In this document: one piece after another, positions 8,961 to 54,746 of the stretch
Numbering within the stretch: position 1 is the stretch's first letter
How the letters are laid out: every line of letters begins with the position of its first letter
DNA from: an uncultured Candidatus Saccharibacteria bacterium
GTDB taxonomy: Bacteria > Patescibacteriota > Minisyncoccia > Phycocordibacterales > UBA6899
Length of the DNA: 64,000 nt
Assembly: GCA_964469335.1 (NCBI GenBank)
Contig: CAYXYK010000003.1
Span: forward strand, 132,674 to 196,673
Direction of reading: 5' to 3'
Position numbers and translations under genes: made by a program
Notes under the pieces: model-generated
The model's database searches: none
What the model was told of the DNA's origin: nothing
Seen by the model: the letters and a program-made list of their open reading frames with translations, nothing else

Positions 8961-9112
8961 AATTTTTTAGTATACGTCAGCCTCGCGGGATTTGAGATGA
9001 GATGCGAGGAGCGGGCGAGTACGCGCCCGAGGCGTACGTGCTGGTACGGTGAGGGCGGGGCGGAGCCCGCGACAATGCAGGTCGCTCAAATCACGTGAGG
9101 TGTGAACAGGCG

Positions 9113-12100
9113 TTATTCTAACGCCTTCACTTTCTCCGCGATAACAGAGGGCGAATCATTCCGTCTCGAAAACTTCCCCTTAATCGCCACCATCTTATCC
9201 ACCACCAAAAACTCCTTCACCTCGGTGAAGGTGCGCGGGAACACCACAACTTCGATCGAGCCGGTGAAATCGGCCACCCGAAGGAACGCCATATGCTCGT
9301 TCTTTTTGGTGATCACCAGTTTGTGTTCTTCGATGATGCCGGCAAGGATCGTTGCCATGCCGTCACGGGTCTCTTCGTTCAGTTTCTTTATCGAACTACC
9401 ACTCTTCTCGATCTTCTCGCGGTGCTTCTCCAAGGGGTGCCCGGAAATATAGAGGCCGAGGAGTTCCTTCTCCCAGGCGAGCTTCGATTCTTGTGAGATC
9501 TCAGGAGCAGGGCGCATGCGTAGCGTCGGCATCGCGTGGGTGGTGCTCATCACGGAGAACAGCGACTCCTGATTGGAGGCTTTCTCGCGCGCATGTGCCT
9601 TGTGATACTCGAGTGCATCGTCGACATTGTGGAGGAGCACTCCGCGCTCTTCGCCCAAAGTATCGAAGCAGCCGGCGCGAATGAGCGACTCGAGTGACTT
9701 CTTGTTGAGGTCCTTGTGAGTGACACGCTCGAGGAATTCGGTGTAGCTCTTGTACGGACCATTCATATCTCGTTCCGCAATAATGGCATCACTTATCGCC
9801 TCACCCAAATTTTTAATTGTGTGTAGTCCAAAACGAATCTCATCTTTATTTACTGCTACGTCAGATTTGGATGAAGAGTGAGGCGCGGAGGAGGCGTCTT
9901 CGGGAGCTGTACGGGATGGTACTGCGACCGATGCGCCGACGCTTAGAGCGCAGCTATTCGCCAAATCTGGCTTAGCTTTGATGACGGTGAAGTCGGCTTG
10001 TGACTGATTGATGTCCGGAGGAAGCACATTAATCTTCATCCGCTTACACTCGGCGATCATCACCGCGATGGTGTCAGTGTCGCCACTTTCAGCCGTGAGG
10101 ACGGCGGTCATGTATTCGGCGGGGAAGTTGGCCTTCATGTATGCGGTCTGATAGGCGACGCGCCCATAGCAGGCGGCGTGCGCTTTGTTGAAACCGTACC
10201 CTTGGAACGGCTCGAAGAGTGCCCAAATAGCTTCAGCTTCTTCTTTCTTCATGCCGCTATGCGACTGACAGCCGTCGACGAAGATGACATGCTGCTTTGC
10301 CATTTCGGCGGGAATCTTCTTGCCGACCGCTTTGCGGAACTTGTCGACACCTTCCCAGTTGTATCCTGCGAGTTCGAGTGCGGTATAGAGGAGGTCGTCC
10401 TGATAGACGAGCACGCCGTAGCTCTTCGCGAGGAACGACTCTGCCTTGGGGTGGAAGTATTCGATCTTGCTGCGACCCTGCTTGCGCGCAATGTACTCGG
10501 GGATGTTGTTCATCGGACCCGGGCGATAGAGTGCGACCATCGCGTTGATGTCGTGGATGGTGGTCGGCTTGAGGTCGATCAAGTGTTTGGTCATGCCGGT
10601 ACCGTTCAATTGGAAGAGTCCTTCGGTCGCGCCGACGGCGAGCATCGCGAAGGTCTTCTTGTCGTCGAACGGAATCTTCTCGATCTCGATATCGATATTG
10701 CGATGCTCTTTCACCAGGCGTACCGCGTCACCGAGGATCGCGAGGTTTCGGATACCGAGGAAGTCGAGCTTGGTGAGGCCGACACCGTCTTCACCGACGG
10801 TGTACATGTCGTACTGGGTGATGAGCTTGCCACCCTTGGGGTCGAACTGGGTCGGCACGTATTCGATGAGGGGTTTCGGTGCGATCACCACACCCGCGGC
10901 ATGCACCGAGACATGGCGGACACATCCTTCGAGCTTCTTGGCGAGGTCGAGGATCTCGCGCGCCTCGGGGTCGGTGCCGTACATCTTCTTGAGGTCGGGT
11001 TCGAGGTCGAGCGCATGCTCGATGGTCATCGGGAATCCTTGCGAACCCATCGGGATGAGTTTCGAGATCTTGTCGCCGACGTCGTAGGGTTTGCCGAGCG
11101 CACGTGCGACGTCGCGCACCGAGCCGCGCGCCATCATGGTTCCGAAGGTACCGATCTGTGCGACCTTGTCTGCGCCGTACTTTCTTTTCGCGTACTCGAT
11201 CACTTCTTCGCGGCGGTTATCGGCGAAGTCCATATCGATATCGGGAGCGGACGGGCGGAACGGATTGAGGAAGCGCTCGAACGGCAGCTGGAATTCGATC
11301 GGGTCGACGTTGGTGATCCCCGAGAGGTACGCGACGTGCGAACCTGCCGCCGAACCACGCACGGTGGTGTAGATGCCGGCTTCGCGGGCAAAGCGCAAGA
11401 GGTCAGCGACCACGAGGAAGTACGGCGCGTAGTTCTTGTTCTTGATCACCTCGAGTTCGTACTTGCGGCGCTCCTCGGAGACCGTGTCGTTCGAGAGGCC
11501 GCGCTCCTTGGCGCCCTTCTGAGTGAGTTCGTCCAGCATCTGGTCCGCGGTCTTGCCGGGTTCGAGCGCGAAGTCAGGGAAGATGAATTTGCCGAGCGTG
11601 AGTTCGACGTTGCACTCTGCGGCGATCTTCGCGGTGTTGTATACCGCGTCAGGAGTCTTGGGGAAGAGGGCGAGCGCCTCTTTGGTCGAGATGAAGCTCG
11701 CGTCGAATTCGAACTTCATACCGTCGTCGACTCCGCCCACGCCGCCGGTCTGGATGCCAAGGAGGGTCTCGTGTGCTTTCTTGTCTTCCTTGTGGAGGTA
11801 GTGCGAGTCGTGGGTCGCGACGAGGGGAATATCGAGTTCGCGCGCGAGTGCGACCAGTGCGTCTTCGACCTCGTCATGTCCCTCGATCTCGGGCTTGTGC
11901 ATGATCTCGATGTAGTAGTTCTCCTTGCCGAAGATCTCCTGATACTCGAGTGCGATCGCGACCGCGCGGTCGTGGTCGCGACTACGCAGCGCTCGCGACA
12001 GCTCTCCGCCGAAACAGCCCGAGAGTGCGATCACGCCTTCCGAATACATCCGTAGCAAGTCTTTGTCGACGCGCGGTTTGTAGTAGTAGCCCTCGAGGTG

Positions 12101-12439: not shown

Positions 12440-12445
12440 GCGCCA

Positions 12446-14328: not shown

Positions 14329-14357
14329 TTGTTGGTAATTCCATAAATGACAAACTT

Positions 14358-14425
14358 TTTCGTTGTGGGTCCCTGTCGCCTCATCACCATACTCCGAGTA
14401 TGGCTCTTTCGGCGACCACCCACGC
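14358..14425 (+). repeat. extended palindromic intergenic element (copy R1 of the recurrent family)
   Basis: Inner hairpin CCATAC-tccga-GTATGG is nested in outer stems GTGGGT..GTCGCC / GGCGAC..ACCCAC. Its 5' flank resembles copy R6. Confidence 0.4.
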
Positions 14426-14478
14426 CTCAAATTTTGTACATTTCTGAAATTCCACAGCAGGAACTGTGACAGAGAAAA

Positions 14479-14507
14479 TTGACAAACACAGATTTATTAA
14501 GCAATAT
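14479..14507 (+). promoter_or_regulatory. sigma70-type promoter TTGACA-N17-CAATAT
   Basis: Consensus -35 box. AGGAGG lies 6 nt before the ATG at 14552. Confidence 0.35.
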
Positions 14508-28855: not shown

Positions 28856-29030
28856 TTCAGCAAATAAACCCTGTCTGCGGCGTTGCGGAGCCTCAGCGAT
28901 TTCAGTCGCCGTACTGTGAGTACGACTTCTTCATCGCTACTCCGCGCCTTGCATCCAAGGTCTCTTTGCAGAACTTATGCTTCTCAGCCTAGACGAAATC
29001 AGTTCTCGCTGATCGATACTTCAAAAATGC
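28856..29030 (+). repeat. intergenic element, family copy R4
   Basis: Begins right after the xfp stop. Central hairpin CGTACT-gtg-AGTACG (28910-28924). Boxes gttcagcaaat and cgccttgcatccaa are shared with R2, R5 and R9. Confidence 0.4.
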
Positions 29031-29039
29031 ATAAGGAAA

Positions 29040-29063
29040 GGCGCACCGTGGGGTGCGCCTTTT
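29040..29063. terminator. bidirectional terminator hairpin GGCGCACC-gtgg-GGTGCGCC
   Basis: Same stem as at 20870. A-run and T-run flank it. Confidence 0.55.
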
Positions 29064-29584: not shown

Positions 29585-31855
29585 ATGAGGTTGAAACGGT
29601 TGGAAATCTTTGGATTCAAATCCTTCGGCAAGAAGGCTGTTCTCGAGTTCTCCTCACAGATCACCTCGGTCGTCGGTCCGAATGGTTCCGGCAAATCCAA
29701 TGTCGCAGAAGGTATCCGTTTCGTACTCGGTGAACAGTCGATGAAATCGATGCGCGGTAAACGCGGAGAGGACCTCATCTTCAACGGCTCACAGTCGACC
29801 GGCCGCGCCAACCGTGCGAGTGTTGCGATCGTGTTCGACAACTCGAAGCGCGAATTTCCACTCGACTTCGACGAAGTCTCCGTCTCGCGTGAAGTCTATC
29901 GCGACGGCTCCAATCAGTATTTCATCAACGGCTCACAGGTCCGCCTCAAGGACGTGTTCGAGCTCCTCGCTTCAGTCCACATCGGCGCCTCGGGCCATCA
30001 CATGATCTCACAAGGTGAAGCAGACCGTATCTTGAATGCAAACCCGAAGGAGCGCCGCGAGATGCTCGAAGACGCGCTCGGTCTCAAGGTCTACCAATAC
30101 AAGCGCGCCGAGAGTGAACGCCGACTCGAGAAGACCGAAGAGAACCTGAAGGAGGCAGAGGCACTTCGCCGCGAGATCGCTCCGCACCTGCGCTTCCTCA
30201 AGAAGCAGGTAGAGAAGGTCAACGAAGGCAAAGCCCTGCGCGAGCGCCTGATCGGACTCTATCGTGAATATCTGAAGCGTGAAGAGATCTATATCACCCG
30301 AAAGAAAGAAGAGATCGCCGGGAAGCGTGCGGATCCCGCAGCTGAACTCGCCGACCTCATGATCAAAATAGCGCATGCGCGCGAACTCCTCGCAGGCGAG
30401 AATGCCGGCGACGAAAAGAGCCAGCGCCTCCTCGCGGTGGACGCCAAACTGCGCGAAGTGCGCCAGCGCCACGACGAACATTCCCGCACCGCAGGCCGTA
30501 TCGACGGTATGATCGAGTTCGAGGAGAAGCAGCTCAAGAAAAAGCAGGAAGCCCTCGAACACAAAGAAGATATTCCCATTCGCCTCGGCGACGTCGAAGG
30601 GCTCGAGAGTACAATCGCACAGGAAATAGCCATCGCTGAGAATTCCGACGACCTCCATGTCATCCGCGGTGTGTTCGGTCGTGTTCGCGCAGCGGTTCGC
30701 GACTTCATCAATCATCACAAGGTACAGGCAGGCGAAAAGACCCTCACCCAAGAAGACTATCGCGAGCTCGAGGAGCTAAAGGCGGAGCGTGCCCGCGCAG
30801 AGGATTCGCTCCGTGCGGTTTCCGAGGAGTCGGCACAAATGGAACGCGAGTATCAGGCAGTGAAGGCAGAGATCGACGCCGAGAAGCAGCACTCACGCGA
30901 GACCGAGCGTGCACTCTTCGAGATGATGAACCGCCGCGGTGAGCTGCAGTCTGTGCTCGACCGGATCAAGAACGAAGAGGACAACATTCTGCGCGAAGGG
31001 CGCCGCCTCGAAGAAGAACTCGGCGAAGCCGGCATCCTGCTTGGCCGTGCGGTGCTCGACTATTCCAATATTGAGCTTTCGATCGAAGAGGTCATGGGTG
31101 AACCGCGTGATTCCCAGGAGCAGCGTCGCCGTGAGATCGAACGCGGCAAGATCCGTCTCGAGGACATCGGTGCCCAGGGTGGGGAAGATGTCGAGAAGGA
31201 ATTCGCCGAGACGACCGAACGCGACAAATACCTCGAGAATGAGATCGCCGATCTGGTGAAGACCCAAGAGTCCCTCTACTCACTCATCGCCGAACTCAAT
31301 GAGAAGCTCAACAACGAATTCCGCGACGGCGTGAAGAAGATCAACAAGCAGTTCAGCGACTTCTTTACCTTGATGTTCGGTGGCGGTGTCGCAGAGCTGT
31401 TCGTGGTGAAGATCGAGAAACGCGGCAAGAAGAAGGACACCGAACTCGATCTCTCTGATCTTCCGGGAGAAGCAGTGGACGGAGAAGAGGAAGAGGACGA
31501 AGAGGGTATCGACATTGCCGTCTCACTTCCGCACAAGAAGACCAAGGGGCTCGTCATGCTCTCCGGCGGTGAGCGCGCACTCACATCAATTGCACTTCTC
31601 TTTGCAATCTCTCAGGTTAACCCGCCGCCGTTCATGGTGCTCGATGAGACCGATGCTGCCCTCGACGAAGCAAACTCACGCAAGTATGGCGACATGATCG
31701 AGAATCTCGCCAAACTCTCGCAGCTGATGGTGATTACCCACAACCGCGAGACCATGTCACGCGCTGGCACTATTTATGGGATCACGATGGGGGCGGATGC
31801 GGTGTCGAAGGTGCTTTCGATCTCCTTTGACGACGCCTCAGCTGTCGCGAAGTAA
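29585..31855 (+). CDS. smc: SMC-like chromosome segregation ATPase, short (about 756 aa) and lacking a recognisable hinge
   Basis: N-terminus MRLKRLEIFGFKSFGK..GPNGSGKSN. C-terminal signature LSGGERALTSIALLFAI and D-loop MVLDETDAALDE. TACAAT box lies 9 nt before ATG 29585, with an in-frame GTG at 29576. Confidence 0.7.
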   Translation: MRLKRLEIFGFKSFGKKAVLEFSSQITSVVGPNGSGKSNVAEGIRFVLGEQSMKSMRGKRGEDLIFNGSQSTGRANRASVAIVFDNSKREFPLDFDEVSVSREVYRDGSNQYFINGSQVRLKDVFELLASVHIGASGHHMISQGEADRILNANPKERREMLEDALGLKVYQYKRAESERRLEKTEENLKEAEALRREIAPHLRFLKKQVEKVNEGKALRERLIGLYREYLKREEIYITRKKEEIAGKRADPAAELADLMIKIAHARELLAGENAGDEKSQRLLAVDAKLREVRQRHDEHSRTAGRIDGMIEFEEKQLKKKQEALEHKEDIPIRLGDVEGLESTIAQEIAIAENSDDLHVIRGVFGRVRAAVRDFINHHKVQAGEKTLTQEDYRELEELKAERARAEDSLRAVSEESAQMEREYQAVKAEIDAEKQHSRETERALFEMMNRRGELQSVLDRIKNEEDNILREGRRLEEELGEAGILLGRAVLDYSNIELSIEEVMGEPRDSQEQRRREIERGKIRLEDIGAQGGEDVEKEFAETTERDKYLENEIADLVKTQESLYSLIAELNEKLNNEFRDGVKKINKQFSDFFTLMFGGGVAELFVVKIEKRGKKKDTELDLSDLPGEAVDGEEEEDEEGIDIAVSLPHKKTKGLVMLSGGERALTSIALLFAISQVNPPPFMVLDETDAALDEANSRKYGDMIENLAKLSQLMVITHNRETMSRAGTIYGITMGADAVSKVLSISFDDASAVAK

Positions 31856-31960
31856 TTTTGGCGCCCTCCTCGTCCTTCCTTCGGCGAACTTCGTCACCGT
31901 ACACCGCGTACGGCTCCGAAGTATCACCTCAGTCCAGGACTTCGGATTGCATCCAAAATT
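31854..31960 (+). repeat. MITE-like intergenic element, family copy R5
   Basis: Terminal inverted repeats AATTTTGG/CCAAAATT. Central hairpin CCGTAC-accgc-GTACGG (31897-31913) covaries with the R2 hairpin. Confidence 0.5.
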
Positions 31961-32441
31961 CCTTCGCTCCAGGGGACGGGGGATAAGTGTGGTGGAGAGA
32001 GCACAGAAGCGGAACGTCCTCTGAAAGAAACTCATGGAGCAAAATCTCATACTTTGACAATCCGTGGACGGTGGAGTAGTTTTCTCTTCGGAGAGGTAAC
32101 AGACGGATAGTGGCATTTGCCCCAAGAAGTGAAGGTGACTCTTGGTCCAGAGATCGCTGACTCCTGCGGGGGAAGGCGTGAGGCAAGGAGGTTCGACCCC
32201 TCCCCGTTGCGAACGTACTAGGATGTACTGTGTAGGATAGGTCTGAGGCTTTGAAGTGGTGTCGCCAGGCATCATGGAGCCACCGTTGAAATAAGACCCT
32301 GTATGTCTGAAGAGCGAAAGTTCTGAGCATTGCAATCCGACGTCGATGGCACTCTCGACAACACCCAGCACCGTTAGGTGTGCGGTAGTGATGCGTTGAC
32401 CGAATGATCGCGTACATAGTAGCCCTCTCCACCCCATACCA
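31961..32441 (+). other. unassigned noncoding region (candidate structured RNA or decayed element) ending at a + strand terminator
   Basis: No credible ORF on either strand. Contains a UUCG-loop hairpin (tTCTCttcgGAGAg) and a tRNA-like T-arm. A + strand terminator lies at 32442-32467. Confidence 0.25.
32166..32214 (+). other. fragment resembling a tRNA 3' end (T-arm GGAGG-TTCGACC-CCTCC + acceptor strand CCGTTGC + G) with a possible 7-nt partner GCGGGGG
   Basis: Canonical T-loop TTCGACC. Position 70 of the acceptor strand is U. No D or anticodon arm could be folded upstream. Confidence 0.3.
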
Positions 32442-34407: not shown

Positions 34408-34677
34408 ATGACCGTAGTCATGAAAGAGCAGGGATGTGTGGCATCGACCATCGGCTATTACTTGGTCATCATCGGTGCGATCAATTGGGGCCTCGTCGGG
34501 CTCAGTGATTTCACAATGATGAATCTCAATGTCGTGAACCTTCTCGTCGGGGGAATGCCGACGCTCGAGTCACTCGTCTATATTGCCGTCGGAGTCGCCG
34601 GAGTGATGACACTCATCGGGTGCAGATGCTCTACCTGCAAGGCCTGCCGCGTCGAAGGGGGAAACCCACAAAAATAG
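34408..34677 (+). CDS. DUF378-family small membrane protein
   Basis: Motif IIGAINWGLVGL and a 2-TM layout typical of the YuiB/DUF378 family. Confidence 0.55.
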   Translation: MTVVMKEQGCVASTIGYYLVIIGAINWGLVGLSDFTMMNLNVVNLLVGGMPTLESLVYIAVGVAGVMTLIGCRCSTCKACRVEGGNPQK

Positions 34678-34679
34678 CG

Positions 34680-34790
34680 AGCTTCTTCGTTGCGGGTCCC
34701 AACCTACTCAGTCAACATAGGAAGACTACGTCTTCTTCGCAGGTATTCCCGCGTCTCGAATCTCATCAATTTTTGCGAGTTTCAAGATAA
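34680..34790 (+). repeat. intergenic element, family copy R6
   Basis: Hairpin ACATAG-gaaga-CTACGT (34715-34731, one mismatch) enclosed by GCGGG/CCCGC. Flanks resemble R1 and R8. Confidence 0.45.
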
Positions 34791-38394: not shown

Positions 38395-38413
38395 CTTACG
38401 AAATGAAAACAAA

Positions 38414-38441
38414 ACACCCCCTGCGTGGGGTGTTTTGTTTT
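38414..38441 (+). terminator. intrinsic terminator
   Basis: Hairpin ACACCCC-ctgcgt-GGGGTGT followed by a T-run. Confidence 0.55.
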
Positions 38442-38560
38442 GTCTCGGGGTGCACATGGTTATTATTTCCGTTATCGGCTGGGGCTAACCCCTCTCGCTT
38501 GTGGGTGTGCATTCTCTCTGCCTCACATATAATAGTGAAATTACGATTCAATTTAATTCC

Positions 38561-41500
38561 ATGAGATCATCTCGCCTGTTCGTGCTGCTTCTTCTTTCGA
38601 TCATGCCACTCCTGGCATCGACTCCGTTCGTCTTTGCGCAGTCTGAGACGGTGACAATGGGGGAGACCGCACTCGTCAGTGACGATGATTCTGGAAATGG
38701 AGGGCTTCTGCTTGCGCAGCAGGCGACACTCGCCCAATCAGGCACACTCCAGTCACTCTCGTTCTATGTAGCAGGGGCGAGCGGCAAGCTTAGGCTCGGA
38801 GTCTATGATGCGACAGGACCGGGCGGCGGACCGGGAGCTAAGCTCGCGGAAGCCGCAGAGATCACTCCGGTAGTCGGGTGGAACACCGCACCAGTCGTGA
38901 CTCCTGTCGCGCTCGCCGCAGGGACATATTGGCTCGCGTATGCACCCGAGAGCAGCAGTCTTCATTTTCGGCTTGTACAAGGGGTAGGCACACTTCGCTA
39001 CTACACGAAGGCGTACGGAGTGATGCCAACAACATTTTCAACTTCCCCGACTTCGTATAGTGGGCACTGGTCTTTCTACGCGACACTTGCAACTTCCGGC
39101 ACCCCGACACCTCCTCCCGCACCAACCCCTGTGAACGGCTCATGTGGAACTGCCAACAATGTCTCGGTCACTTCGATCCCCACGAGCAATCTCTGCAGCG
39201 TCGGCACTGCGTCAAGTGTCTCAGGAACAGGACCATGGAGTTGGACCTGTGCAGGAACGAATGGGGGAACCACAGCGAGTTGTGTTGCACCACTTACGGT
39301 CGTGACTCCTCCTGCTCCGACACCGACACCCAGCCCGTCTCCGTCCCCGGCACCTACTCCCGCTCCCTCCGGTAGCAACCCCCTCTCGACGCTCGCGGCG
39401 AGCATGACCCCCGGCACTTGGGCGCAACTTCCCGTGTCGAATCAAAATAGTGTTCTCGGCGTAGGTAGTGTTTCGGGAAGTATGATCCACTTTGTGAATT
39501 CCATGCCGTGGAATCCGATCAATAAACAGATCGAGATCATCGGGCAGGATCACGGTTACCCCGGCATGCGGCATGTGCGTTACGACTCTATTGCGAATCA
39601 GTTCGTGCTCGTTGCAGACAACGCGGGTATTCCTAATTCCGGTCACGGCTATGATCATATGTCGGTGAATCCGAACACGGGCGATCTCTATGTGCGACTT
39701 TACGGTGCCTTTAGTGGTGTGATCTCGTCCGTGAAGAAAACTTACGGAACATCAAACTTTGTGAGTATTCCTGATGTGCCCGCGTCAGCACAGGTGGCGA
39801 TCGGCACCGTGTGGTGGTCGGGGCCATTTATCGGTGGGGGAAGTCAGGGCTCATTCATGGTGTTCAACAGTGGCAATGCAGATATTTACAATGCAGGTGG
39901 ACTTGCATCTGATGGGCAGATCGTCGCATACAATCCGCTTACGAACTCTTGGTTCTACAATCAAACAGGGAGGTCACCATTTTATAGCAACGGGGGCAGT
40001 TATACGTATCACAGCATTATGGAATATAGTCCCATAAAGAATGTTGCTGTATATGGTGGCGGAAATGAGGCAAACAATAAACTCTGGCGGATGGATTCAA
40101 CCGGCGCAGTACAAGCAATGCCCAATGTCCCCACAGGTACCGCTGTTGGTATTCAGCAGGGCAATCTTGTGAACGACCCGGTTACTGGCAATTTCCTCCT
40201 TCTTTCTGGCGGACAACTTTGGGAGCTAAATCCTGATGGCGCTGGGACTTGGACGAAGAAAACCTCGCCCCCAAGCGGAGTCGGTGATCCGAAGGCACCA
40301 GCGGGAGTTGTTTCATCATCGATCACTGATTACGGTGTGGTGGCATACATATCGCAAACAAGTGGAACTGGTGGAACCTTCTTTCTCTATAAGCCGGCAA
40401 CATCAGGCGGCACTCCAACTCCCACCCCGCCACCACCCCCTCCTCCCGCCCCAACTCCGACACCTACGCCAACACCAACTCCACCCCCGCCGCCTCCACC
40501 ATCACCAACTCCCGCACCATCGACCAAGTTCACTATTGGTGCCCGTGTGCAGGTCTCGTCGGGTCCACTTAACGTACGCAGCACTGCGAACACCGTAGGC
40601 GCATTGCTCGGTACTCAGCAAACAGGGGCACTCGGTACGGTCACGTCCGGACCAACTGCACAAGGAGGATACAACTGGTGGAACGTGAACTTCGATAGTG
40701 GAGTTGATGGTTGGAGTGTTGAAGATTTTATGGTGACCTACGTGCCTCCACCAACACCACCGCCAGCCCAAACACCCTCTCCCACGCCGCCAGTCAGTAG
40801 CGCAGATTTCACAACGCGTTGTAGCGCTGCGGGGGTCGTGAAGTGTGTCGGATTTGATTCAGCATCCGACTTCAATACGGGCACCGGTGGGACAAATGGT
40901 GCATACGGACAAAACTACGGCATCTTTCCTCCTTCGGGAACTTCAGACTATACACGTGCCACTCAAGACACCGCACTCAAAGCCTCAGGCAATGGGTCAC
41001 TGAAATTTACCATCCCTTCAAATTCGGGTTCAGACACATCGGGTTCTTGGTTCACCAATTTTTCGAGTGACCTCAATACCCAATTTGATGGTGGCGAAGA
41101 ATTTTATGTGCAGTGGCGCCAGCGCTTTAGTCCGGAGTATTTGACGACAAGTTATGCAGGTAGTGGTGGCTGGAAGCAGGTCATTATCGGTACTGGTGAC
41201 AAACCGGGACAGCCTTACTCTTCCTGTTCTTCGCTCGAACTCCCTGTGCAGAATACGTACCTCCGAGGTTTTCCAGTTATGTACAACTCGTGCAGCGGCT
41301 CCACCTCACACGGCCCTTATAATCCTTTTGAAGAGCCATTTGGGAATTATGATTTTAAACTCCAGAATGCACGACCTGCACCGTACTGTCTCTACTCACA
41401 AAGCAGTACCGGATACTTTCCTCCTAACGGAAATTGTTTCGGTTACGTCGCGAACGAATGGATGACATTCCAAGTACATGTGAAGCTCGGTGCCCGCATT

Positions 41501-43936
41501 GGAGACGAATTCAAGAATAGTTATGTTGAGCTTTGGCTCGCACGTGAAGGTCAGCCTTCCCAGCAGTTGTTCAATTGGGGTCCATACAATTTGACCGCAG
41601 GCTCGTTAACTGAAAATCAAAAATTTGGAAAGGTGTGGTTGCTTCCGTATCAAACAGGGAAGTCCTCAGCGCAGTCGCACCCCACCGCATACACGTGGTA
41701 CGACGAACTCATCATCTCGCGCAACAAGATCGCTGATCCGACTGTTACAGGCGGCACCCCAACTCCAACCCCTCCACCACCACCCCCTCCTGCACCAACC
41801 CCAACTCCAACTCCCACACCTCCGCCAAGCCTCACCCCCGCACCATCAACAAAGTTCGCACTGAACGATCGCATTCAAATGACCGAGAATGTGAATGTAC
41901 GCGCAACGGCAAACACTGCCGGCACACTCTTGGGTACACAAACAACAGGCACTCTTGGCACCATCATTGGTGGTCCTATCGCACAAGGAGGATACAACTG
42001 GTGGAACGTGAACTTCGATAGTGGAGCCGACGGTTATGCAGCGGAAGACTTTATGTTAAAGTATGTCGTACCCGTTACTCCGCCGACAGCACCTTCCTCA
42101 GGCGCGACAGCGCTCTCAACGCTTGCTGCAGGAATGACCCCCGGCACTTGGGCGCAGCTCACTCCTTCGAATCAGAACTTCGTACTCGGCGTTGGCAACA
42201 TCTCCGGATCGATGATCCACTACATGAACTCTGCCGCCTGGAATCCGATCACGAAGAAGCTCGAGATCATCGGGATGGATCACAATTGGGGAAGCGAGCG
42301 CTACGCGCAGTATGACGCGATGACCAATGCATTCGTACTCGTCTCGAACGACGTCGGTTTCGGAAGCAGTGTCCGTCACGGCTACGACCACAATGCGGTG
42401 AACCCGTACACCGGCGTCGTGTATAACCGACTCTCGAACATCGCTTCCGGGGTTCTTTCTATCCGCTATACCAACTCCGGTTCGGCGAGTTTTGCCTCAA
42501 CTCCCGACATCGCAACCGGCTATGATCAGATCGCCGTAGGCTCCGCATGGTGGTCGGGCTCGTTCACCGGAGCGGGAAGTCAGGGTGCGTTCTTCATCTA
42601 CAATAGCGGTGACTCGAACGGCTCCGCCACGGACGGACATATGGTCGCGTACGACCCGGTGAAGAATTCATGGATATTGAACAAACACGGTGTCTCGCCG
42701 AACTACTCCGTTACTGGCAGCACCTATCACAGTGTGATGGAATACAGCCCAGTGAAGAATGTTGCGGTCTACGGCGGCGGCAACGATGCAACGACGAGAC
42801 TCTGGAAGATGGATTCGACCGGTACGGTCACTGCGATGCCGAATGTCCCGACAGGGAAGGGCGTCGGCATTCAGCAAGGCAATCTTGTGAATGATCCGGT
42901 CACCGGCAACTTCCTGCTGCTCTCGGCGGGGGAGCTCTGGCAGCTCAACCCCGACGGCGCGGGCACTTGGACGAAGCTTGCGAATCCTCCCTCGGGAGTC
43001 GGAATTCCCGGACCTTCAGTCACCGACGGCGTCATCTCTTCCGCGATATCGGAATACGGAGTCATCGTCTACGTGAAACAGACTTCTTCGACCGGTGGAA
43101 CGTTCTATCTCTACAAACCCGCAAGCGGAGGCACTGTCACCCCGTCACCAACTCCTTCTCCAACCCCGACTCCCACTCCGACTCCGTCCCCATCACCAAC
43201 TCCAACCCCCGCACCCTCCACCAAATTCACACTGAGCACACGCATCCAAGTCTCCTCAGGACCTCTCAACGTCCGCAGTACGGCCAATACCTCGGGCACC
43301 CTCCTTGGTACACAAGCCACCAATGCACTCGGTACCATCTCGGGAGGACCCACCGCACAAGGAGGATATAGCTGGTGGAATGTGAACTTCGATAGTGGTG
43401 TCGACGGCTACGTGGCAGAAGACTTCCTGGTGACATACACTGCACCGACACCTGCACCAGTTACACCTCCAACTCCCGCACCAGTCTCCCCACCCGCAGC
43501 AACACCACCAACGCCAACTCCTCCCGCATCCGGCGGAGGCGGCGGGGGAGGTGGCAGTACGCCAACCCCACCACCCACTCCTCCTTCCTCTGGAGGTGGG
43601 GGAGTCGGATCATACGGAGGCGGCGGCAGTGTCTATACTCCTCCTGCTCCCGTCACTCCGGTCGCTACTTCCACCAAAGCAACCACCACTCCGAAGCTCA
43701 CCCTCACCAAGAACCTCTACCGCGGTCTCAAACACGCAGAGGTACTCAAGCTTCAGAACTTCCTCATCACACTCGGCTACCTTGCCAAAGACTCTGCCAC
43801 CGGGTACTACGGACCACTCACGCAGAAGGCAGTACAAACGTACCAGTGTGCAAGCCTGAAGCTGTGTTCCGGTACTCCTCAATCGAACGGCTATGGCAAT
43901 GTCGGACCCAAGACCAGGAAGCAGATGGCTGGGTAG
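38561..43936 (+). CDS. giant secreted modular cell-surface protein (1791 aa from Met 38561)
   Basis: Signal peptide MRSSRLFVLLLLSIMPLLASTPFVFA. Modules in order: a Cys-containing small module, beta-propeller-like domain A (about 39370-40390), Pro/Thr linkers, SH3b-like module 1 (about 40514-40740), ConA-like lectin/lyase-like domain (about 40800-41740), SH3b 2 (about 41845-42064), duplicate domain A' (about 42101-43120), SH3b 3 (about 43213-43440), poly-Gly/PT region, and a C-terminal PG_binding_1-like domain. Confidence 0.7.
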   Translation: MRSSRLFVLLLLSIMPLLASTPFVFAQSETVTMGETALVSDDDSGNGGLLLAQQATLAQSGTLQSLSFYVAGASGKLRLGVYDATGPGGGPGAKLAEAAEITPVVGWNTAPVVTPVALAAGTYWLAYAPESSSLHFRLVQGVGTLRYYTKAYGVMPTTFSTSPTSYSGHWSFYATLATSGTPTPPPAPTPVNGSCGTANNVSVTSIPTSNLCSVGTASSVSGTGPWSWTCAGTNGGTTASCVAPLTVVTPPAPTPTPSPSPSPAPTPAPSGSNPLSTLAASMTPGTWAQLPVSNQNSVLGVGSVSGSMIHFVNSMPWNPINKQIEIIGQDHGYPGMRHVRYDSIANQFVLVADNAGIPNSGHGYDHMSVNPNTGDLYVRLYGAFSGVISSVKKTYGTSNFVSIPDVPASAQVAIGTVWWSGPFIGGGSQGSFMVFNSGNADIYNAGGLASDGQIVAYNPLTNSWFYNQTGRSPFYSNGGSYTYHSIMEYSPIKNVAVYGGGNEANNKLWRMDSTGAVQAMPNVPTGTAVGIQQGNLVNDPVTGNFLLLSGGQLWELNPDGAGTWTKKTSPPSGVGDPKAPAGVVSSSITDYGVVAYISQTSGTGGTFFLYKPATSGGTPTPTPPPPPPPAPTPTPTPTPTPPPPPPPSPTPAPSTKFTIGARVQVSSGPLNVRSTANTVGALLGTQQTGALGTVTSGPTAQGGYNWWNVNFDSGVDGWSVEDFMVTYVPPPTPPPAQTPSPTPPVSSADFTTRCSAAGVVKCVGFDSASDFNTGTGGTNGAYGQNYGIFPPSGTSDYTRATQDTALKASGNGSLKFTIPSNSGSDTSGSWFTNFSSDLNTQFDGGEEFYVQWRQRFSPEYLTTSYAGSGGWKQVIIGTGDKPGQPYSSCSSLELPVQNTYLRGFPVMYNSCSGSTSHGPYNPFEEPFGNYDFKLQNARPAPYCLYSQSSTGYFPPNGNCFGYVANEWMTFQVHVKLGARIGDEFKNSYVELWLAREGQPSQQLFNWGPYNLTAGSLTENQKFGKVWLLPYQTGKSSAQSHPTAYTWYDELIISRNKIADPTVTGGTPTPTPPPPPPPAPTPTPTPTPPPSLTPAPSTKFALNDRIQMTENVNVRATANTAGTLLGTQTTGTLGTIIGGPIAQGGYNWWNVNFDSGADGYAAEDFMLKYVVPVTPPTAPSSGATALSTLAAGMTPGTWAQLTPSNQNFVLGVGNISGSMIHYMNSAAWNPITKKLEIIGMDHNWGSERYAQYDAMTNAFVLVSNDVGFGSSVRHGYDHNAVNPYTGVVYNRLSNIASGVLSIRYTNSGSASFASTPDIATGYDQIAVGSAWWSGSFTGAGSQGAFFIYNSGDSNGSATDGHMVAYDPVKNSWILNKHGVSPNYSVTGSTYHSVMEYSPVKNVAVYGGGNDATTRLWKMDSTGTVTAMPNVPTGKGVGIQQGNLVNDPVTGNFLLLSAGELWQLNPDGAGTWTKLANPPSGVGIPGPSVTDGVISSAISEYGVIVYVKQTSSTGGTFYLYKPASGGTVTPSPTPSPTPTPTPTPSPSPTPTPAPSTKFTLSTRIQVSSGPLNVRSTANTSGTLLGTQATNALGTISGGPTAQGGYSWWNVNFDSGVDGYVAEDFLVTYTAPTPAPVTPPTPAPVSPPAATPPTPTPPASGGGGGGGGSTPTPPPTPPSSGGGGVGSYGGGGSVYTPPAPVTPVATSTKATTTPKLTLTKNLYRGLKHAEVLKLQNFLITLGYLAKDSATGYYGPLTQKAVQTYQCASLKLCSGTPQSNGYGNVGPKTRKQMAG

Positions 43937-44032
43937 CTGAATTCGTTGACCAAAACGCCTCAATAGCCCATAATTGGACTTGCAATGGAGCGATCCAGAG
44001 CAGCGCACATTTAACAGGTAGCAAGTAAAGAT

Positions 44033-44359
44033 ATGGCTGAAACATTCAGTGACAAGGAGTTCCTCGAATTCGTGGTGAAGAACCTTGTCGATAAACCGGA
44101 CGCAGTCAAAGTGACTCGTGTGGTAGACGAAATGGGAGTATTACTGACACTCGATATCGATCCTGAAGACATGGGCAAGGTGATCGGACGCATGGGCAAC
44201 ACTGCCAAGGCGGTCCGCACTCTGCTTCGCGTCGTCGGAATGAAGAACAATGCGCGTGTGAACCTGAAGATCAACGAGCCTGAGGGCGGCAAGCGTGCCG
44301 GACAGGTGGCATCGGATTCGTCGGACGTATCTGACATCATCGCCGATCTCAAAGCTTAA
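44033..44359 (+). CDS. KH-domain RNA-binding protein (UPF0109 family)
   Basis: Motif VIGRMGNTAKAVRTLL. Normally lies between rpsP and rimM/trmD. Confidence 0.7.
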   Translation: MAETFSDKEFLEFVVKNLVDKPDAVKVTRVVDEMGVLLTLDIDPEDMGKVIGRMGNTAKAVRTLLRVVGMKNNARVNLKINEPEGGKRAGQVASDSSDVSDIIADLKA

Positions 44360-44552
44360 ATTTCCAAATCGAGCTTCTCGCTCGAGTTTCTCAAAACAGA
44401 CCCAGTCGTCGTACTCCGAGTACGCCTTCCGGGTCTGTTTTGCTATTACTCTCGAGATGTATCTCGATTAGGTATCTTCACAATGAGTCAACTCAAGGAT
44501 TCGCTTTTGATCTAAAATTTCTTCGAGTCTTCAAGTGATGGAATTTGGAAAT
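44360..44552 (+). repeat. composite MITE-like element, family copy R7, with 10-bp terminal inverted repeats ATTTCCAAAT/ATTTGGAAAT
   Basis: Terminal inverted repeats at 44360-44369 and 44543-44552. Nested hairpin: outer AACAGACCC/GGGTCTGTT, inner CGTAC-tccga-GTACG (44395-44441), followed by a T-run. Second hairpin CTCGAGAT/ATCTCGA. Confidence 0.45.
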
Positions 44553-44771
44553 GCCCTGGTGGTGCATTCAAAATATCGCTCCTGGTATATCAACGCAAAC
44601 AGGGAATTTTGAATGAAAGACTCACTTCATGAAGCGTGTTTTTCGCTCGATTCGAAATTGTTGGATCCCTCTGTCCCCACATGGCAAGAAGTTCGTGAAC
44701 TTTCCCAGTAAAAAATTTGCTACACTGAGGAAGTAAAATATTGTTCATAAAGTCTCCATTTCCCAACTTCG

Positions 44772-47492
44772 ATGTTACGATCACTCCGTACAAGGGTCAT
44801 CTTGCTCATAGTCGCTGCTGTCACAGTATGTCTCTTTTTTTTCTTTTTTCTAGAGATTAGCATTAATACGAAGCTGTATAGTGCGCAGATGGAAAAAGAA
44901 ATTCTCGTGTCAGTGAAAATGAGCATAGAGAAAGTGGACCACTACACTCATGTAATGGAACAAAAATCGACCGACCTTGCGCGTACGGGTGAATTTTTCT
45001 ACACACTTCGCAAAGATTCTCCAAAAAAGAACCTTGATGCTGAGATGGAAAAATATCTTACTGAGAATTTTTCCACGTTCCGCGAAGCGATCGGCGGCGG
45101 AATATGGTACGAACCATATAAATTTTCTGCAGATAAGCAATATTATGGTCCCTATGCATTCTGGAATAAAGAGAAGGTGATATTCACCTGGGACCTCACC
45201 GCGCCGGAATATGATTATCTTACACAAGACTGGTACACCATCGCGCTTCCGCCAGATTGGAGTAGGTCAAAGAAGCGTGCACAAGATCATTATTGGACAG
45301 CACCATATTATGACGAAGCTGGGACATTCCAACTTATGATCACCGTCGATGCTTTTATGTATGACGAAAAAGGGATGATCATCGGAATCACCACAGCAGA
45401 TTGGTCAATAGAAAAAATGGTCAACTTCCTTCGAGAATCGAAAATCACCGAGGATAGTGGGATTTTTCTTGTAGAAGGTGGTTCAAATATGGTCATGACC
45501 AACACACTCGCGCCAGAATCAGTGATGAAAGATGCGAACACCGTTCCGTGGATGAAGCTTCTCGTTTCACCCGAGAAAGGCAACATCAAAGAAACAGCAG
45601 TGAGCATTGGTGGAACGTCATACTATGCGTACTACGCCTTAACAGATGCGGGAATGCTGTATGGCACATTGGTCCCACATCACGTATTGTCTGACCCTGC
45701 GAATAAACTACTCACGATAAGTATCGGTATGAGTATATTTTTTGGAGTACTCCTGATCATTGTTTTGTATTTTATCTTATCAACGGTGACCAATCCCATC
45801 ATTGCGTTAACAAAAGTAGTGACGCGAGTTGCCGGTGGAGATCTCTCCTCACAAATAAAAATATCCTCAGAAGATGAGATCGGCCAACTCGCAACATCAT
45901 TCAACTCTATGACTCAGAAATTGGCCGAAATGTACGCAAATTTAGACGAGAAGGTGAAAGAAAAGACCTCCCAACTCACTCAGCAGATACATGAAACGAA
46001 AATGCACGCTGAGGAGCTCAGGAAATTCCAACTAGCAGTAGAAAATACTTCCCAACATATTATTATAACCGACAGAGATGGCACCGTTCTCTATGCAAAT
46101 CCGGCGGTCGCCTCCACAACCGGATTTGCTCGGGAAGAAGTGATTGGCAACAATCCTTCGTTGTGGGGGAAACAAATGTCTAAAGAGTTTTATGAACAAT
46201 TATGGCATACGATTCTTGTCGAGAAAAAGACATTTACAGGTGAGGTACAAAACAAGCGCAAGAATGGTGAGCACTATATTGCCTTAGCGATTATTTCTCC
46301 GATCGTCGACAATACTGGCGAAGTAAAATTCTTCATCGGAATTGAGACGGATATCACCAGACAGAAAGAGTTTGAAAAAATGCTTGCAGATGAAAAAGAC
46401 CATGTCGACAAACTGGTCATCGAGAGGACAAGAGAGCTCAAGCAAGAACATGCACGCCTACTTTCTTCGATCAACAGTCTCTCATTTGGGTTCATTGTTG
46501 CCGACACGGAAGACCGGATAATCCTCAAGAACAAAGCTATGAGTCAACTTTTCGAGTTTCGTGAGGGTGATGTGCTGAGCATTGAGCGTATTTCTTCACT
46601 GCTTGGTGAACATTTTGATCTGAGAATGAGGGTTGAACAATGCTTCAGAGATAAGGCGGCGTGCGAGATAAAAGAAATTGTTTTTGGTAAGCGTTTCTTG
46701 CGCGGGATTATTGCGCCGGTCATGACCGAAGATAATATGGAGAAACTCGGCTACGTCCTTCTTCTCGAAGATATTACCGAGGCAAAGGTGATGGAGCGCA
46801 GCCGTGACGAATTCTTTGCAGTTGCGTCGCATGAGCTTCGCACGCCGCTTACTGCCATTCGGGGGAATGCAGACATGTTGCTGGACTTGCCCGCTGATCA
46901 AAAAATAGATGCGGACATGAGAGGTATGCTCAGTGATATCAATGCGTCGAGTATCCGACTCATCGAGATAGTTAATGATTTTCTTGAAGTATCACGCCTT
47001 GAGCAGGGAAAATTCAATATGAAGAAAGAGTGTTTCCCCGCAGTACTTGTGGTCGAAAAGGTGGTCAGAGATTTGGGGGAGATGATCGGCAAAAAAGGTA
47101 TCTCACTCCGATTTGCTCCACCAAGCTCGCCACTGCCGGATGTATTAGCGGATAAAGATCGTTTCGAACAGGTGTTGCTCAACTTGGTCGGGAATTCCGC
47201 AAAATTCACAAAAGAAGGCAGTGTGACTATAGAGCTGGAACAACAGGACAAATTCATTAAAGTTCGCGTCACTGACACGGGGATTGGCATATCGCAACAG
47301 AATCAGACCTTACTGTTCCGCAAGTTCCAACAGGCCGGTGAGAGTGTACTCGCAAGGGATATTGCACAGGGCACAGGTCTGGGTTTGTATATATGCAAGA
47401 TTATTGTCAATGCTATGGGTGGAGAGATTGGTATCGAGCGTAGCGAGCTCGATAAAGGGAGCACCTTTTTCTTTACGCTTCCGATATCATAG
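44772..47492 (+). CDS. sensor histidine kinase (TM - double-Cache-like periplasmic domain - TM - HAMP - PAS x2 - HisKA - HATPase_c)
   Basis: HisKA H-box AVASHELRTPLTAIRGNADML and GxGxG HATPase motifs. PAS-like NTSQHIIITDRDGTVLYAN. No response regulator gene nearby. The gene is distinctly lower in GC than its neighbours. Confidence 0.75.
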   Translation: MLRSLRTRVILLIVAAVTVCLFFFFFLEISINTKLYSAQMEKEILVSVKMSIEKVDHYTHVMEQKSTDLARTGEFFYTLRKDSPKKNLDAEMEKYLTENFSTFREAIGGGIWYEPYKFSADKQYYGPYAFWNKEKVIFTWDLTAPEYDYLTQDWYTIALPPDWSRSKKRAQDHYWTAPYYDEAGTFQLMITVDAFMYDEKGMIIGITTADWSIEKMVNFLRESKITEDSGIFLVEGGSNMVMTNTLAPESVMKDANTVPWMKLLVSPEKGNIKETAVSIGGTSYYAYYALTDAGMLYGTLVPHHVLSDPANKLLTISIGMSIFFGVLLIIVLYFILSTVTNPIIALTKVVTRVAGGDLSSQIKISSEDEIGQLATSFNSMTQKLAEMYANLDEKVKEKTSQLTQQIHETKMHAEELRKFQLAVENTSQHIIITDRDGTVLYANPAVASTTGFAREEVIGNNPSLWGKQMSKEFYEQLWHTILVEKKTFTGEVQNKRKNGEHYIALAIISPIVDNTGEVKFFIGIETDITRQKEFEKMLADEKDHVDKLVIERTRELKQEHARLLSSINSLSFGFIVADTEDRIILKNKAMSQLFEFREGDVLSIERISSLLGEHFDLRMRVEQCFRDKAACEIKEIVFGKRFLRGIIAPVMTEDNMEKLGYVLLLEDITEAKVMERSRDEFFAVASHELRTPLTAIRGNADMLLDLPADQKIDADMRGMLSDINASSIRLIEIVNDFLEVSRLEQGKFNMKKECFPAVLVVEKVVRDLGEMIGKKGISLRFAPPSSPLPDVLADKDRFEQVLLNLVGNSAKFTKEGSVTIELEQQDKFIKVRVTDTGIGISQQNQTLLFRKFQQAGESVLARDIAQGTGLGLYICKIIVNAMGGEIGIERSELDKGSTFFFTLPIS

Positions 47493-47556
47493 CTATTCGG
47501 GCTATGGAGCATCGAAATGACATCGGGGAAACGGGCATCGGATTTCATTCAAAGAA

Positions 47557-47586
47557 CCCCCGCTCGAAAGGCGGGTATTCTTTTTG
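47557..47586 (+). terminator. intrinsic terminator
   Basis: Hairpin CCCGC-tcgaaag-GCGGG followed by a T-rich tract. Confidence 0.5.
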
Positions 47587-48683: not shown

Positions 48684-48685
48684 CT

Positions 48686-51367: not shown

Positions 51368-51815
51368 TCAACAAATCACAAAGGAGTCTCTTGCTCCGTC
51401 GTCACTCGGCCGAAATGAGAAAGAAGACTCTCTCACTCCAGGCCTCGCTAGCCGGAGTAATCTCATCATCGAAACACTCGTCGGTTCCATCCTGATCGCC
51501 ATCGTCATCCTGATCCTCAACCCGATGGACTTCTGGATGCCGGATATGGCACACGTCACCGCACTCACGATGCTTCTGGTCGTTTTCGTACTCTATGCCT
51601 CGTTCATTCTGCGCGAGAAAGCGCGCGACGAGCGTGACGTACTGCACCGCATGTTCGCCGCCCGCGCCGCGTTCTTCACCGGCACCGCACTTCTCACGCT
51701 TGGGGTATTCTTCGGCGCCCTAAAGGGTGATATCGACATGTGGCTGGTCATTTCTCTTGTCGGAATGATACTCGCGAAGCTTGTTGCCCGCTTCTACTCA
51801 GACAAAAACCTTTAG
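51357..51815 (+). CDS. membrane protein partner of the XRE regulator
   Basis: 152 aa with 4 TM helices. Its start overlaps the XRE gene by 11 nt. Confidence 0.5.
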
Positions 51816-51819
51816 AACG

Positions 51820-51960
51820 GGCGGATTTCTTTGTTGTAAGGCGAAGCACTTATCCCCAGCTAATTCAATCAACGTAGGAGGACTACGTCTTTTTCGTGAA
51901 CTATCCCGCGCCGCGAACTCCATCCCGTTCTATGGGTTTTAGAGATAGGTATTCTATGTA
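51820..51960 (+). repeat. intergenic element, family copy R8
   Basis: Hairpin ACGTAG-gagga-CTACGT (51872-51888). 5' box gggcggatttctttgttg resembles R3 and R1. Confidence 0.4.
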
Positions 51961-53889: not shown

Positions 53890-54010
53890 AACTTTTGATT
53901 TTGGCAGTCTACTGCGTTGGCTGCGTCGCGAATCTGTTAACGTACAATGAGTACGTCTCACAGGGCTCGCTTCCCTGGCGCCTTGTATCCAATCCAAAAT
54001 CAAAAGTTTT
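53888..54010 (+). repeat. MITE-like element, family copy R9, with perfect 17-bp terminal inverted repeats AAAACTTTTGATTTTGG / CCAAAATCAAAAGTTTT
   Basis: Terminal inverted repeats at 53888-53904 and 53994-54010 (verified as exact reverse complements). Central hairpin ACGTAC-aatga-GTACGT (53940-53956). Internal boxes align with R2. Confidence 0.55.
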
Positions 54011-54061: not shown

Positions 54062-54625
54062 ATGAAAAACGAAATTGCCATTTTTGGAGGAGGATGCTTC
54101 TGGTGCACCGAAGCAGTGTTTCAGATGATGAAGGGCGTCAGCGCCGTAAAGCCAGGCTATGCCGGCGGCGAGAAAGCGAACCCTACCTATCAAGAAGTTT
54201 CTTCTGGTATGACCGGCCACGCCGAAGTCATTCATATCACCTATGACCCAAGCGTGGTGAAGTACACCGACCTCCTCACGGTATTCTTTGGTTCACATGA
54301 TCCGACCACCAAGAATAGACAAGGTGCCGATGTCGGTACCCAGTATCGCTCGATCATCCTCACCACGAGCGATGAACAAGCAACAGAAGCCAAGAAGTTC
54401 ATCGAAGAACTCAACACCTCGAGCGAATTCGGTGACCCGATCGTCACTGAAGTGGAGCCGCTCAAAGAGTTCTACGGCGCCGAGGACTATCACAAGAATT
54501 ATTTCCGTGACAATCCGAACCAAGGCTACTGCCAGATTGTCATCAATCCGAAACTCGAAAAAGTGAAAAAGAATTTTGCAGCGTTGTTGGACAGCACGTA
54601 CGCAAATAGCGCACTTCAGCGTTGA
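54062..54625 (+). CDS. msrA: peptide methionine sulfoxide reductase A
   Basis: Active-site motif GGGCFWCTE. Confidence 0.85.
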   Translation: MKNEIAIFGGGCFWCTEAVFQMMKGVSAVKPGYAGGEKANPTYQEVSSGMTGHAEVIHITYDPSVVKYTDLLTVFFGSHDPTTKNRQGADVGTQYRSIILTTSDEQATEAKKFIEELNTSSEFGDPIVTEVEPLKEFYGAEDYHKNYFRDNPNQGYCQIVINPKLEKVKKNFAALLDSTYANSALQR

Positions 54626-54746
54626 CCGCGCCGTCGAGTCCCCTCAACGTACCAATGTGTACGCCTCGCGGACATCTCGGCTTGTCGCCTCGAATTGCAT
54701 CTATTTGCTTAAGTGCTCAATGATTTAACAAATAAACAAAACTAAT

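Follow-up and report, generated by a model that had tools for sequence, protein, structure and literature searches.

Does the hairpin that follows the khpA gene in a Paceibacterota genome stand there to terminate transcription, or does it stand there as one copy of a palindromic repeat that has settled at many gene ends? The locus lies in a 64,000-nucleotide stretch of contig CAYXYK010000003.1 (the window), where khpA (44033..44359, plus strand; stop codon TAA at 44357-59) encodes a 108-aa KH-domain RNA-binding protein (Pfam PF13083, E 3e-21) and is followed by a repeat copy, R7. A first-pass annotation had described R7 as a 193-bp element, bounded by terminal inverted repeats, whose nested hairpin and T-run had been co-opted as the khpA terminator. 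We consider it likely (a probability of roughly 65%) that R7 is instead a diverged full-length copy of a family of non-autonomous mobile or recombining DNA palindromes, of the same kind as the Rickettsia palindromic elements (RPE), the enterobacterial repetitive intergenic consensus (ERIC) and the MITEs, or miniature inverted-repeat transposable elements, and that its hairpin was not built as a terminator.

The strings from which the 193-bp element was assembled are all present where they were placed: ATTTCCAAAT at 44360-69, ATTTGGAAAT at 44543-52, AACAGACCC at 44395-403, GGGTCTGTT at 44431-39, a hairpin CGTAC-TCCGA-GTACG at 44410-24 which is indeed of the family type, and a T-run at 44438-41 followed by GC. 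The same loop does recur in copy R1 (CCATAC-TCCGA-GTATGG at 14387-403), R7 does belong to a real interspersed repeat family, the region is composite, and the upstream gene is, as proposed, the KH gene of the rpsP locus. The outer boundaries fare less well: the family unit ends at ~44472, not 44552, so that the right arm falls 71 nt outside it. The parts of the region are as follows.

44364..44471, plus strand: R7, full-length family copy (covariance model R2, 76.4 bits, E 6e-16, model positions 1-110)
44360..44369, no strand: left repeat arm of the first-pass annotation, ATTTCCAAAT, overlapping the 5' outer stem of the family unit
44392..44442, plus strand: middle and apical part of the R7 rod, stem CAAAACAGACCC/GGGTCTGTTTTG enclosing CGTAC-TCCGA-GTACG
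44484..44520, plus strand: possible remnant of the family 3' block (GAGTCAACTCAAGGATTCGCTTTTGATCTAAAATTTC), resembling by eye the 3' blocks of the relative L001 and of the copy at 17531; weak
44543..44552, no strand: right repeat arm of the first-pass annotation, ATTTGGAAAT, outside the family unit and unique among 36 copies
44603..44660, plus strand: mini-palindrome GGAATTTTGAATGA...TCGATTCGAAATTG with two inverted repeats (covariance model 5.8 bits, E 0.39); weak

R7 scores only 21.9 bits on the minus strand. Its outer stem pairs CCAAATCGAG (44364-73) with CTCGATTAGG (44463-72) at 9 of 10 positions and extends imperfectly to 44360-44476; the inner stem built on AACAGACCC and GGGTCTGTT, which had been read as 9 bp, is really 12 bp (CAAAACAGACCC/GGGTCTGTTTTG, 44392-403 with 44431-42). 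Because of this length the four T's at 44438-41 are not a free tail after the stem: they form the 3' strand of an A4:T4 helix segment and are paired. The predicted free energy of the 51-nt hairpin is -25.3 kcal/mol, and folding of the 126-nt region gives z = -6.7.

The distal arm remains curious in its own right. The 10-mer ATTTCCAAAT and its exact complement ATTTGGAAAT occur at these two places only in 64 kb (0.1 expected), and the reverse complement falls within 300 nt in 0.18% of dinucleotide shuffles (P = 0.0018, in a post hoc test); a second distal arm of at least 9 nt is absent from the other 35 copies examined, and the arm at 44543-44552 may mark one end of an older or partial copy. The 193-bp element therefore consists of a complete family copy with palindrome-rich debris downstream of it and is not a single bounded unit. 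The 300 nt from 44472 to 44771 abound in inverted repeats; the candidate remnant at 44484-44520 is not significant in an nhmmer search with the 3'-block profile, the mini-palindrome at 44603-44660 is possibly an internally deleted family copy, and model searches of 44473-44780 return chance-level partial matches only. That trails of partial copies do occur in the family follows from a clear lone 3'-block remnant at 20482-20510, behind the copy at 20352 (nhmmer, E 0.004).

Two covariance models, the first (model R1) built from five copies and the second (model R2) from 23, find 12 distinct family copies in the window at E <= 3e-4: R7 and the following eleven.

8988..9094, minus strand: just after the dnaE stop codon, which lies 18 nt upstream (R2, 61.4 bits)
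9862..9970, minus strand: in frame inside dnaE (R2, 71.9 bits)
14341..14446, plus strand: copy R1 of the first-pass annotation, loop TCCGA (R2, 39.6 bits)
17531..17640, plus strand: the upstream gene's stop TAA forms model positions 2-4 (R2, 106.6 bits)
20352..20459, plus strand: after rnc, followed by the lone 3'-block remnant (R2)
28860..28968, plus strand: after a phosphoketolase gene (R2, 28.1 bits, E 3e-4)
31852..31961, plus strand: overlapping the smc stop codon (R2, 114 bits)
34668..34775, plus strand: overlapping the stop codon of a DUF378 gene (R2, 68.4 bits)
51812..51932, plus strand: overlapping the stop codon of a 203-aa open reading frame (ORF) (R2, 44.8 bits)
53895..54002, plus strand: after a DsbD/thioredoxin gene, with an orthologous copy in the relative L009 (R2)
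54600..54709, plus strand: entered for 26 nt by the msrA ORF (R2)

An alignment of 10 copies, assembled by inspection and by alignment, reveals an architecture common to R7 and the other window sites. Each copy is ~110 nt long and folds end to end into a single long rod hairpin, in which i) a lower block is conserved (GGCG..CT.C paired with TCG.A...CAUCC, or TCG.A...CATCC as DNA); ii) an apical hairpin is conserved (TCA-CGTAC-N5-GTACG-CTC); iii) the stems between lower block and tip vary in sequence while keeping their complementarity; iv) the outer stem, of 7-16 bp, differs in sequence from copy to copy; and v) certain unpaired bases are conserved. The rod as a whole is conserved in structure and variable in sequence. 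Of the cells at paired positions in the 23-sequence alignment, 87.3% are paired; column shuffles give 59.6% and slid partners 33-43%. The alignment was fitted to the model and is biased toward structure, a bias which the slid controls carry as well. Both sides have changed in 32 of the 36 pairs. Pairing is of the Watson-Crick kind only, without a G-U excess (17 G-T pairs and 27 A-C mismatches at paired positions), and the complementarity is therefore strand-symmetric, as for a DNA palindrome, not that of a helix selected only in RNA. Pairwise identity between copies averages 47% with a maximum of 75%, and the nearest copy to R7, the one behind khpA in L009, is 52% identical.

A scan of the window at Rfam 15 gathering thresholds returned a fragment of large-subunit rRNA elsewhere only, E-value scans of 31800-32000 and 44300-44800 returned chance-level matches only, and we found no description of such repeats in the literature on Patescibacteria. 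This ~110-nt palindromic repeat family of Paceibacterota is previously undescribed.

The family lives against stop codons. In 27 of 36 copies (window and relatives together; ORFs of at least 90 codons) the end of a co-oriented ORF falls within -10 to +18 nt of model position 1, and in 10 copies the stop codon itself (TAA or TGA) constitutes model positions 2-4; at R7, 4 nt separate the end of the khpA stop from model position 1. The upstream genes are functionally unrelated (dnaE, rnc, smc, phosphoketolase, a DsbD-like gene, msrA, and khpA), and over the 64 kb roughly every fifth gene end carries a copy. In two places it enters the protein. The product of dnaE (9113-12505) has 45 inserted residues in its HHH region, at a point where Taq Pol III alpha (2hpi, residues 883-885) has one, and the copy at 9862-9970, translated in frame, accounts for most of them. 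The msrA reading frame continues into the copy at 54600-54625, and homology to the L009 msrA stops at 54579; since the frame runs 26 nt into the copy, the C-terminal tail of MsrA is element-derived. The same spacer between msrA and the next gene holds the one clear exception to gene-sense orientation: the L009 copy (17371-17474, minus strand) is inverted relative to that of the window (54600-54709, plus strand). At 13000-14500 of the window gene orientation turns from minus to plus, and the cumulative GC skew peaks near 13 kb; because the strand switch and the skew peak coincide at ~13 kb, element orientation relative to replication and relative to transcription are inseparable here.

The closest genomes to the window are Candidatus Paceibacterota metagenome-assembled genomes, the nearest with 98% KhpA identity, and we compared the locus with its counterparts in relatives (labelled L001, L002, and so on) and across 80 Paceibacterota species loci. 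Within one species-level lineage khpA has 2-3 differences from that of the window in L002 and L004-L007 and 9 in L003. In the former strains the khpA site is empty, and the stop TAG is followed directly by a terminator, AAAAGAACACCCACTC-AAAC-GAGTGGGTGTTCTTT. The site is filled in L003, where the stop TAA belongs to the element, all 9 khpA differences fall in the last 40 nt of the gene, and a remnant of the old khpA end (ATCTCAAGGCATAG) survives behind the element, before a terminator identical to that of L002; the pattern looks like a filled allele imported by recombination. L001 and L009 share this arrangement and carry different versions of the element. An imperfect ~14-nt duplication of the khpA end flanks the L003 and L001 copies. 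Duplications of the gene end are seen repeatedly around the element: the khpA-end remnant follows it in L003, L001, and L009 and precedes it in L065. There (10360-10500) an extra, remnant end of khpA, GCTGAGAATCTAA, which resembles the genuine gene end of L073, sits immediately before the element, 134 nt past the true stop.

The rnc site carries three very different versions of the element behind an identical RNase III protein. We had entertained rapid turnover at this site and have downgraded it: the rnc genes differ at 4-10% of sites, all of them synonymous, and ordinary divergence plus recombination suffice. A ~220-nt version found after rnc in L089 (2203-2420; also in L091, L092, L094, and L096) has extra sequence in its 5' half and may represent a nested insertion.

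Beyond these strains the family was detected in 11 of the 80 species loci. Its 3'-block pattern was found in four metagenome contigs and in 0 viral contigs, and metagenome contigs gave 0 exact matches to the R7 hairpin. The window and L009 lineages have expanded the family to about one copy per 4-5 kb, and they retain orthologous copies (52-67% identity) after smc, the DsbD gene, and khpA. In most of the remaining species a canonical terminator stands 10-40 nt after the khpA stop. AT-rich sequence after khpA in L016, L017, L021, L030, and L048 is vaguely similar to the element, is not detected by the model, and was not counted.

The surroundings of R7 are themselves strain-specific. In contigs encoding the identical KhpA protein the usual order is rpsP, khpA, a 114-aa gene, a 95-aa gene, and trmD; in the window it is rpsP (37990-38394), an 1811-aa wall protein gene, khpA, a histidine kinase gene (44772-47492; 906 aa, PAS/HAMP by Pfam), and trmD at 48000. 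In a blastn comparison with L002, khpA survives as a 355-bp island (44004-44358) that stays 99.7% identical as far as the last codon, flanked by two strain-specific replacements: 38379-44004, which holds the gene for the 1811-aa proline/threonine-rich SH3/peptidoglycan-binding protein, and 44358-47557; related strains carry 150 bp and 510 bp in their places, and at the second position L002 has the terminator and the 114-aa gene. The second segment begins at the khpA stop codon and has a GC content of ~0.44, against 0.55 elsewhere.

44358..47557, plus strand: strain-specific 3.2-kb segment holding R7, the palindrome debris, and the kinase gene (blastn against L002, GC profile, Pfam)
47559..47575, plus strand: first canonical intrinsic terminator downstream of khpA (CCCGCTCGAAAGGCGGG then TATTCTTTTT), behind the kinase gene

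These relatives bear directly on the question of termination. Behind khpA-adjacent copies a canonical GC hairpin with a T-run follows 19-81 nt downstream in 10 of 10 relatives, and for this reason the family is not a terminator as such. R7 has no canonical terminator within 260 nt downstream, nor is there one between khpA and the kinase gene. The 3.2-kb kinase-bearing segment has replaced the canonical khpA terminator in the window strain, and R7 is on that account the only terminator-like structure before the kinase gene.

We favor a mobile or recombining DNA palindrome on the strength of the family's size, end-to-end hairpin, interspersion, in-frame dnaE copy, presence/absence polymorphism, partial copies, and strand-symmetric complementarity. 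Such a palindrome would persist wherever it is tolerated, which here means the ends of genes, the spacers of operons, and in one case a surface loop of DnaE. As in a MITE, the units are short (~110 nt, where MITEs are under ~300 bp), multi-copy (12 in 64 kb), and closed by terminal inverted repeats (with the outer-stem sequence differing between copies), and a single site, that behind khpA, is empty in some strains and filled in another; as in an RPE, a copy is inserted in frame into a conserved gene.

Several observations weigh against this reading: i) no transposase, integrase, REP-associated tyrosine transposase (RAYT), or Y1 Pfam domain was found in the ~45 ORFs of the window; ii) no consistent TA, TAA, or other short target-site duplication was seen by eye at eight copies (among them 17531, 31852, 53895, and those of L001, L003, and L013); iii) judged by their divergence the copies are old and diverse, with no recent burst; iv) an unfiltered search of 66.6 kb from seven other species gave eight copies, seven of which lie directly after khpA, and the khpA stop is the family's most constant home; v) orientation is almost always that of the upstream gene, and points iv and v agree with a selected function in the 3' untranslated region (3'-UTR) at least as well as with pure selfishness, and perhaps better; and vi) the R7 hairpin is as stable as the genome's true terminators (-25.3 versus -15 to -20 kcal/mol for canonical terminators of the window), with a tail, TTTTGCTATT, that resembles the tail TTTTGTCA of the terminator at 29037.

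The last of these points belongs to the first-pass proposal that R7 now serves khpA as a co-opted Rho-independent terminator, its 12-bp GC-containing stem forming during transcription and the TTTT at 44438-41 releasing the transcript. We regard it as doubtful. Besides the favorable free energy and tail, the proposal draws on the missing ancestral khpA terminator in the window strain and the lack of any other terminator before the kinase gene, and it has a precedent in SPRITE, a terminator-like repeat of S. pneumoniae (PMC10969869). R7 shares with the canonical terminators of its own genome a GC-containing stem between an A-run and a T-run, but those at 29037, 34808, and 47945 have perfect 7-11-bp stems, 4-5-nt loops, and 4-8 T's, whereas R7 is a 51-nt interrupted hairpin with 4 T's, all paired with the upstream AAAA in the full rod, and is not flagged by two simple terminator scans. 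The recurrence of the stem plus TTTT, which the first-pass annotation had proposed to check among the other copies, is real: the A4:T4 middle helix is present in ~8 of 36 copies. These include the khpA copies of L065, L071, and L073, which nevertheless precede canonical terminators, and many copies between co-transcribed genes (for example 53895 and 54600) have no T-run at all. The hairpin and TTTT of R7 are thus probably ordinary family architecture in which the middle helix happens to be A4:T4, and a hairpin with a few T's inside a repeat is no evidence of a co-opted terminator. R7 may nonetheless stop some transcripts by accident in the window strain, as a fortuitous or partial terminator. 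The window also contains near-identical canonical terminator hairpins at distant sites, one pair at 20867-20892 and 29037-29062 (AAAGGCGCACC-N4-GGTGCGCCTTT) and another at 7013-7060 and 7718-7765 (ATAAAAGAACTGCCCCGCGG.TGCGGGGCAG).

Somewhat less probable again, in our estimate, is a host-selected 3'-UTR RNA module, originally placed after khpA, whose rod controls mRNA decay or processing or binds the KH protein; it may act as an RNase III substrate, as a block to 3' exonucleases, or by ribosome-dependent unmasking as proposed for ERIC. The gene-sense orientation and the stop codon in the base of the rod fit such a module, as do the near-exclusive residence beside khpA in the seven other species, the copies kept at orthologous sites between the window and L009, the conserved sequence blocks in the lower stem and tip, the presence of genes for RNase III (rnc) and RNase R, the orientation-dependent effects of ERIC on mRNA stability (PMC2229807), and the window's want of a transposase or a clear target duplication. 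Against it stand the missing excess of G-U over A-C at paired positions, the copy in frame inside dnaE, the inverted L009 copy at the msrA site, and the absence of the khpA copy from close strains of the L002 type and from most species, where a terminator follows directly after the stop.

In a wider hypothesis, unlikely as a whole, the family would be a hairpin element defined by its structure and tied to the stop of khpA across Paceibacterota, not a decaying MITE, and either a novel type of stop-homing mobile DNA or a 3'-UTR module that proliferated later. Stop-homing DNA would reach stop codons by way of an enzyme recognizing a folded single strand; a module bound by the KH protein or by RNase III would have proliferated, in the window lineage, to about one gene end in five. 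If true, the khpA-anchored hairpin would be a major unnoticed organizer of gene ends in the streamlined genomes of the candidate phyla radiation.

It is very improbable that the element is a structure-specific recombination site, read as folded single-stranded DNA like an integron attC site or the hairpin end of an IS200/IS605 element, and capturing segments such as the kinase island. A conserved structure with variable sequence and conserved unpaired bases would suit such a site, like many attC sites the copies begin at a stop codon, the orientation bias could follow the direction of replication, and R7 lies exactly at the left edge of the strain-specific 3.2-kb segment, at whose right edge a weak 3'-block-like string (47536-53; nhmmer E 1.6) is found. 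This string, CATCGGATTTCATTCAAAG (47536-47553), stands directly after the kinase stop and before the terminator at 47559. The window contains neither attC core sites (RYYYAAC / GTTRRRY) nor an integrase or HUH enzyme, however; the genes ahead of the elements are of the housekeeping type (dnaE, smc, rnc, msrA) rather than cassette genes, the other island (38379-44004, with the 1811-aa gene) has no element at its edges, and homologous recombination in conserved flanks can explain the kinase island. Two specific identities can be set aside: an integron attC site, since the termini are TAATTTTGG ... CCAAAAT rather than R''/R' cores and the window has no integrase, and a REP/RAYT system, since a unit of ~110 nt is the wrong size and the window has no Y1 transposase or RAYT.

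Some features of the window stand apart from the repeat family. With 61.3 bits (E 1e-15), an 88-nt segment at 32221-32308 (plus strand) matches the L1 stalk, positions 2127-2214 of the bacterial 23S rRNA model. The segment, an orphan L1-stalk mimic, is distant from every rRNA or L11/L1 gene and stands between ORFs without Pfam matches, and the surrounding 2.9 kb have no counterpart in L009. ARAGORN calls a 95-nt tRNA-Arg(TCG) at 49374-49468 (plus strand) inside a 453-aa ORF (48623-49984) without a Pfam match; either the tRNA call is false or the ORF is no gene. Exact-protein look-ups returned no record for the kinase, the NusB/Nudix ORF, the DUF378 ORF, or the 203-aa ORF, and for MsrA a match in the window's own strain only.

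Bacteria of the candidate phyla radiation have very small, gene-dense genomes that are usually thought to be repeat-poor. Yet here a single palindrome family overlaps stop codons, alters the C-terminus of MsrA, sits within an essential polymerase, and marks the most variable spots between strains, and both gene callers and terminator predictors will misread the sites at which it lies. We wish to stress that the moderate interest of the locus stems mainly from this family and not from the proposed terminator, and that the khpA-anchored copy, conserved in at least 10 species, provides a handle on whether the family is selfish DNA or an adopted RNA module.

Several families of palindromic DNA elements have been reviewed for bacteria, among them RPE, ERIC, Correia, RUP, and REP/BIME (PMC2229807, PMC10969869). 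SPRITE, which inserts into other repeats and forms clusters with them, is the known precedent for a repeat hairpin that resembles an intrinsic terminator (PMC10969869). Its terminator-like motif belongs to the SPRITE family as such, whereas here the T-run occurs in ~8 of 36 copies only and canonical terminators follow. REP/BIME and NIME-type mosaic repeats are likewise palindromic and multi-copy, occupy 3' untranslated regions and operon spacers, and form mosaics with partial copies much as in 44360-44660, and roles in mRNA stability and termination have been proposed for them (PMC3733652, PMC2817692); REPs, however, are 20-40 nt long, bear GTAG or CGTC tags, and are RAYT-linked, unlike the ~110-nt Paceibacterota unit, for which no RAYT was found in the window.

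ERIC (also called IRU) is closer, an imperfect palindrome of ~127 bp that lies in transcribed intergenic regions, forms an RNA hairpin, and affects the upstream mRNA in an orientation-dependent manner (PMC2229807). It differs in duplicating TA on insertion, with TA at both termini, where the Paceibacterota family has no consistent duplication, and in that its copies are much more alike in sequence. ERIC copies adjoining or overlapping stop codons reportedly prefer one orientation, as De Gregorio et al. are said to have described in 2005. RPEs, finally, are palindromes of ~100-150 bp that fold end to end into a long hairpin, have no linked transposase, and are interspersed in a small genome, in frame inside conserved protein genes (PMC2229807, PMC10969869), as here in dnaE; they belong to another host phylum, have no known sequence relationship to the present family, and are likened to it as analogues only, and they lie inside genes, whereas the Paceibacterota copies are mostly intergenic, stand against stop codons, and covary strongly. 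By analogy, RPE, for in-frame insertion, and ERIC, for co-transcription, stop-adjacent position, and orientation effects, would seem to be the closest counterparts of the family to which R7 belongs.

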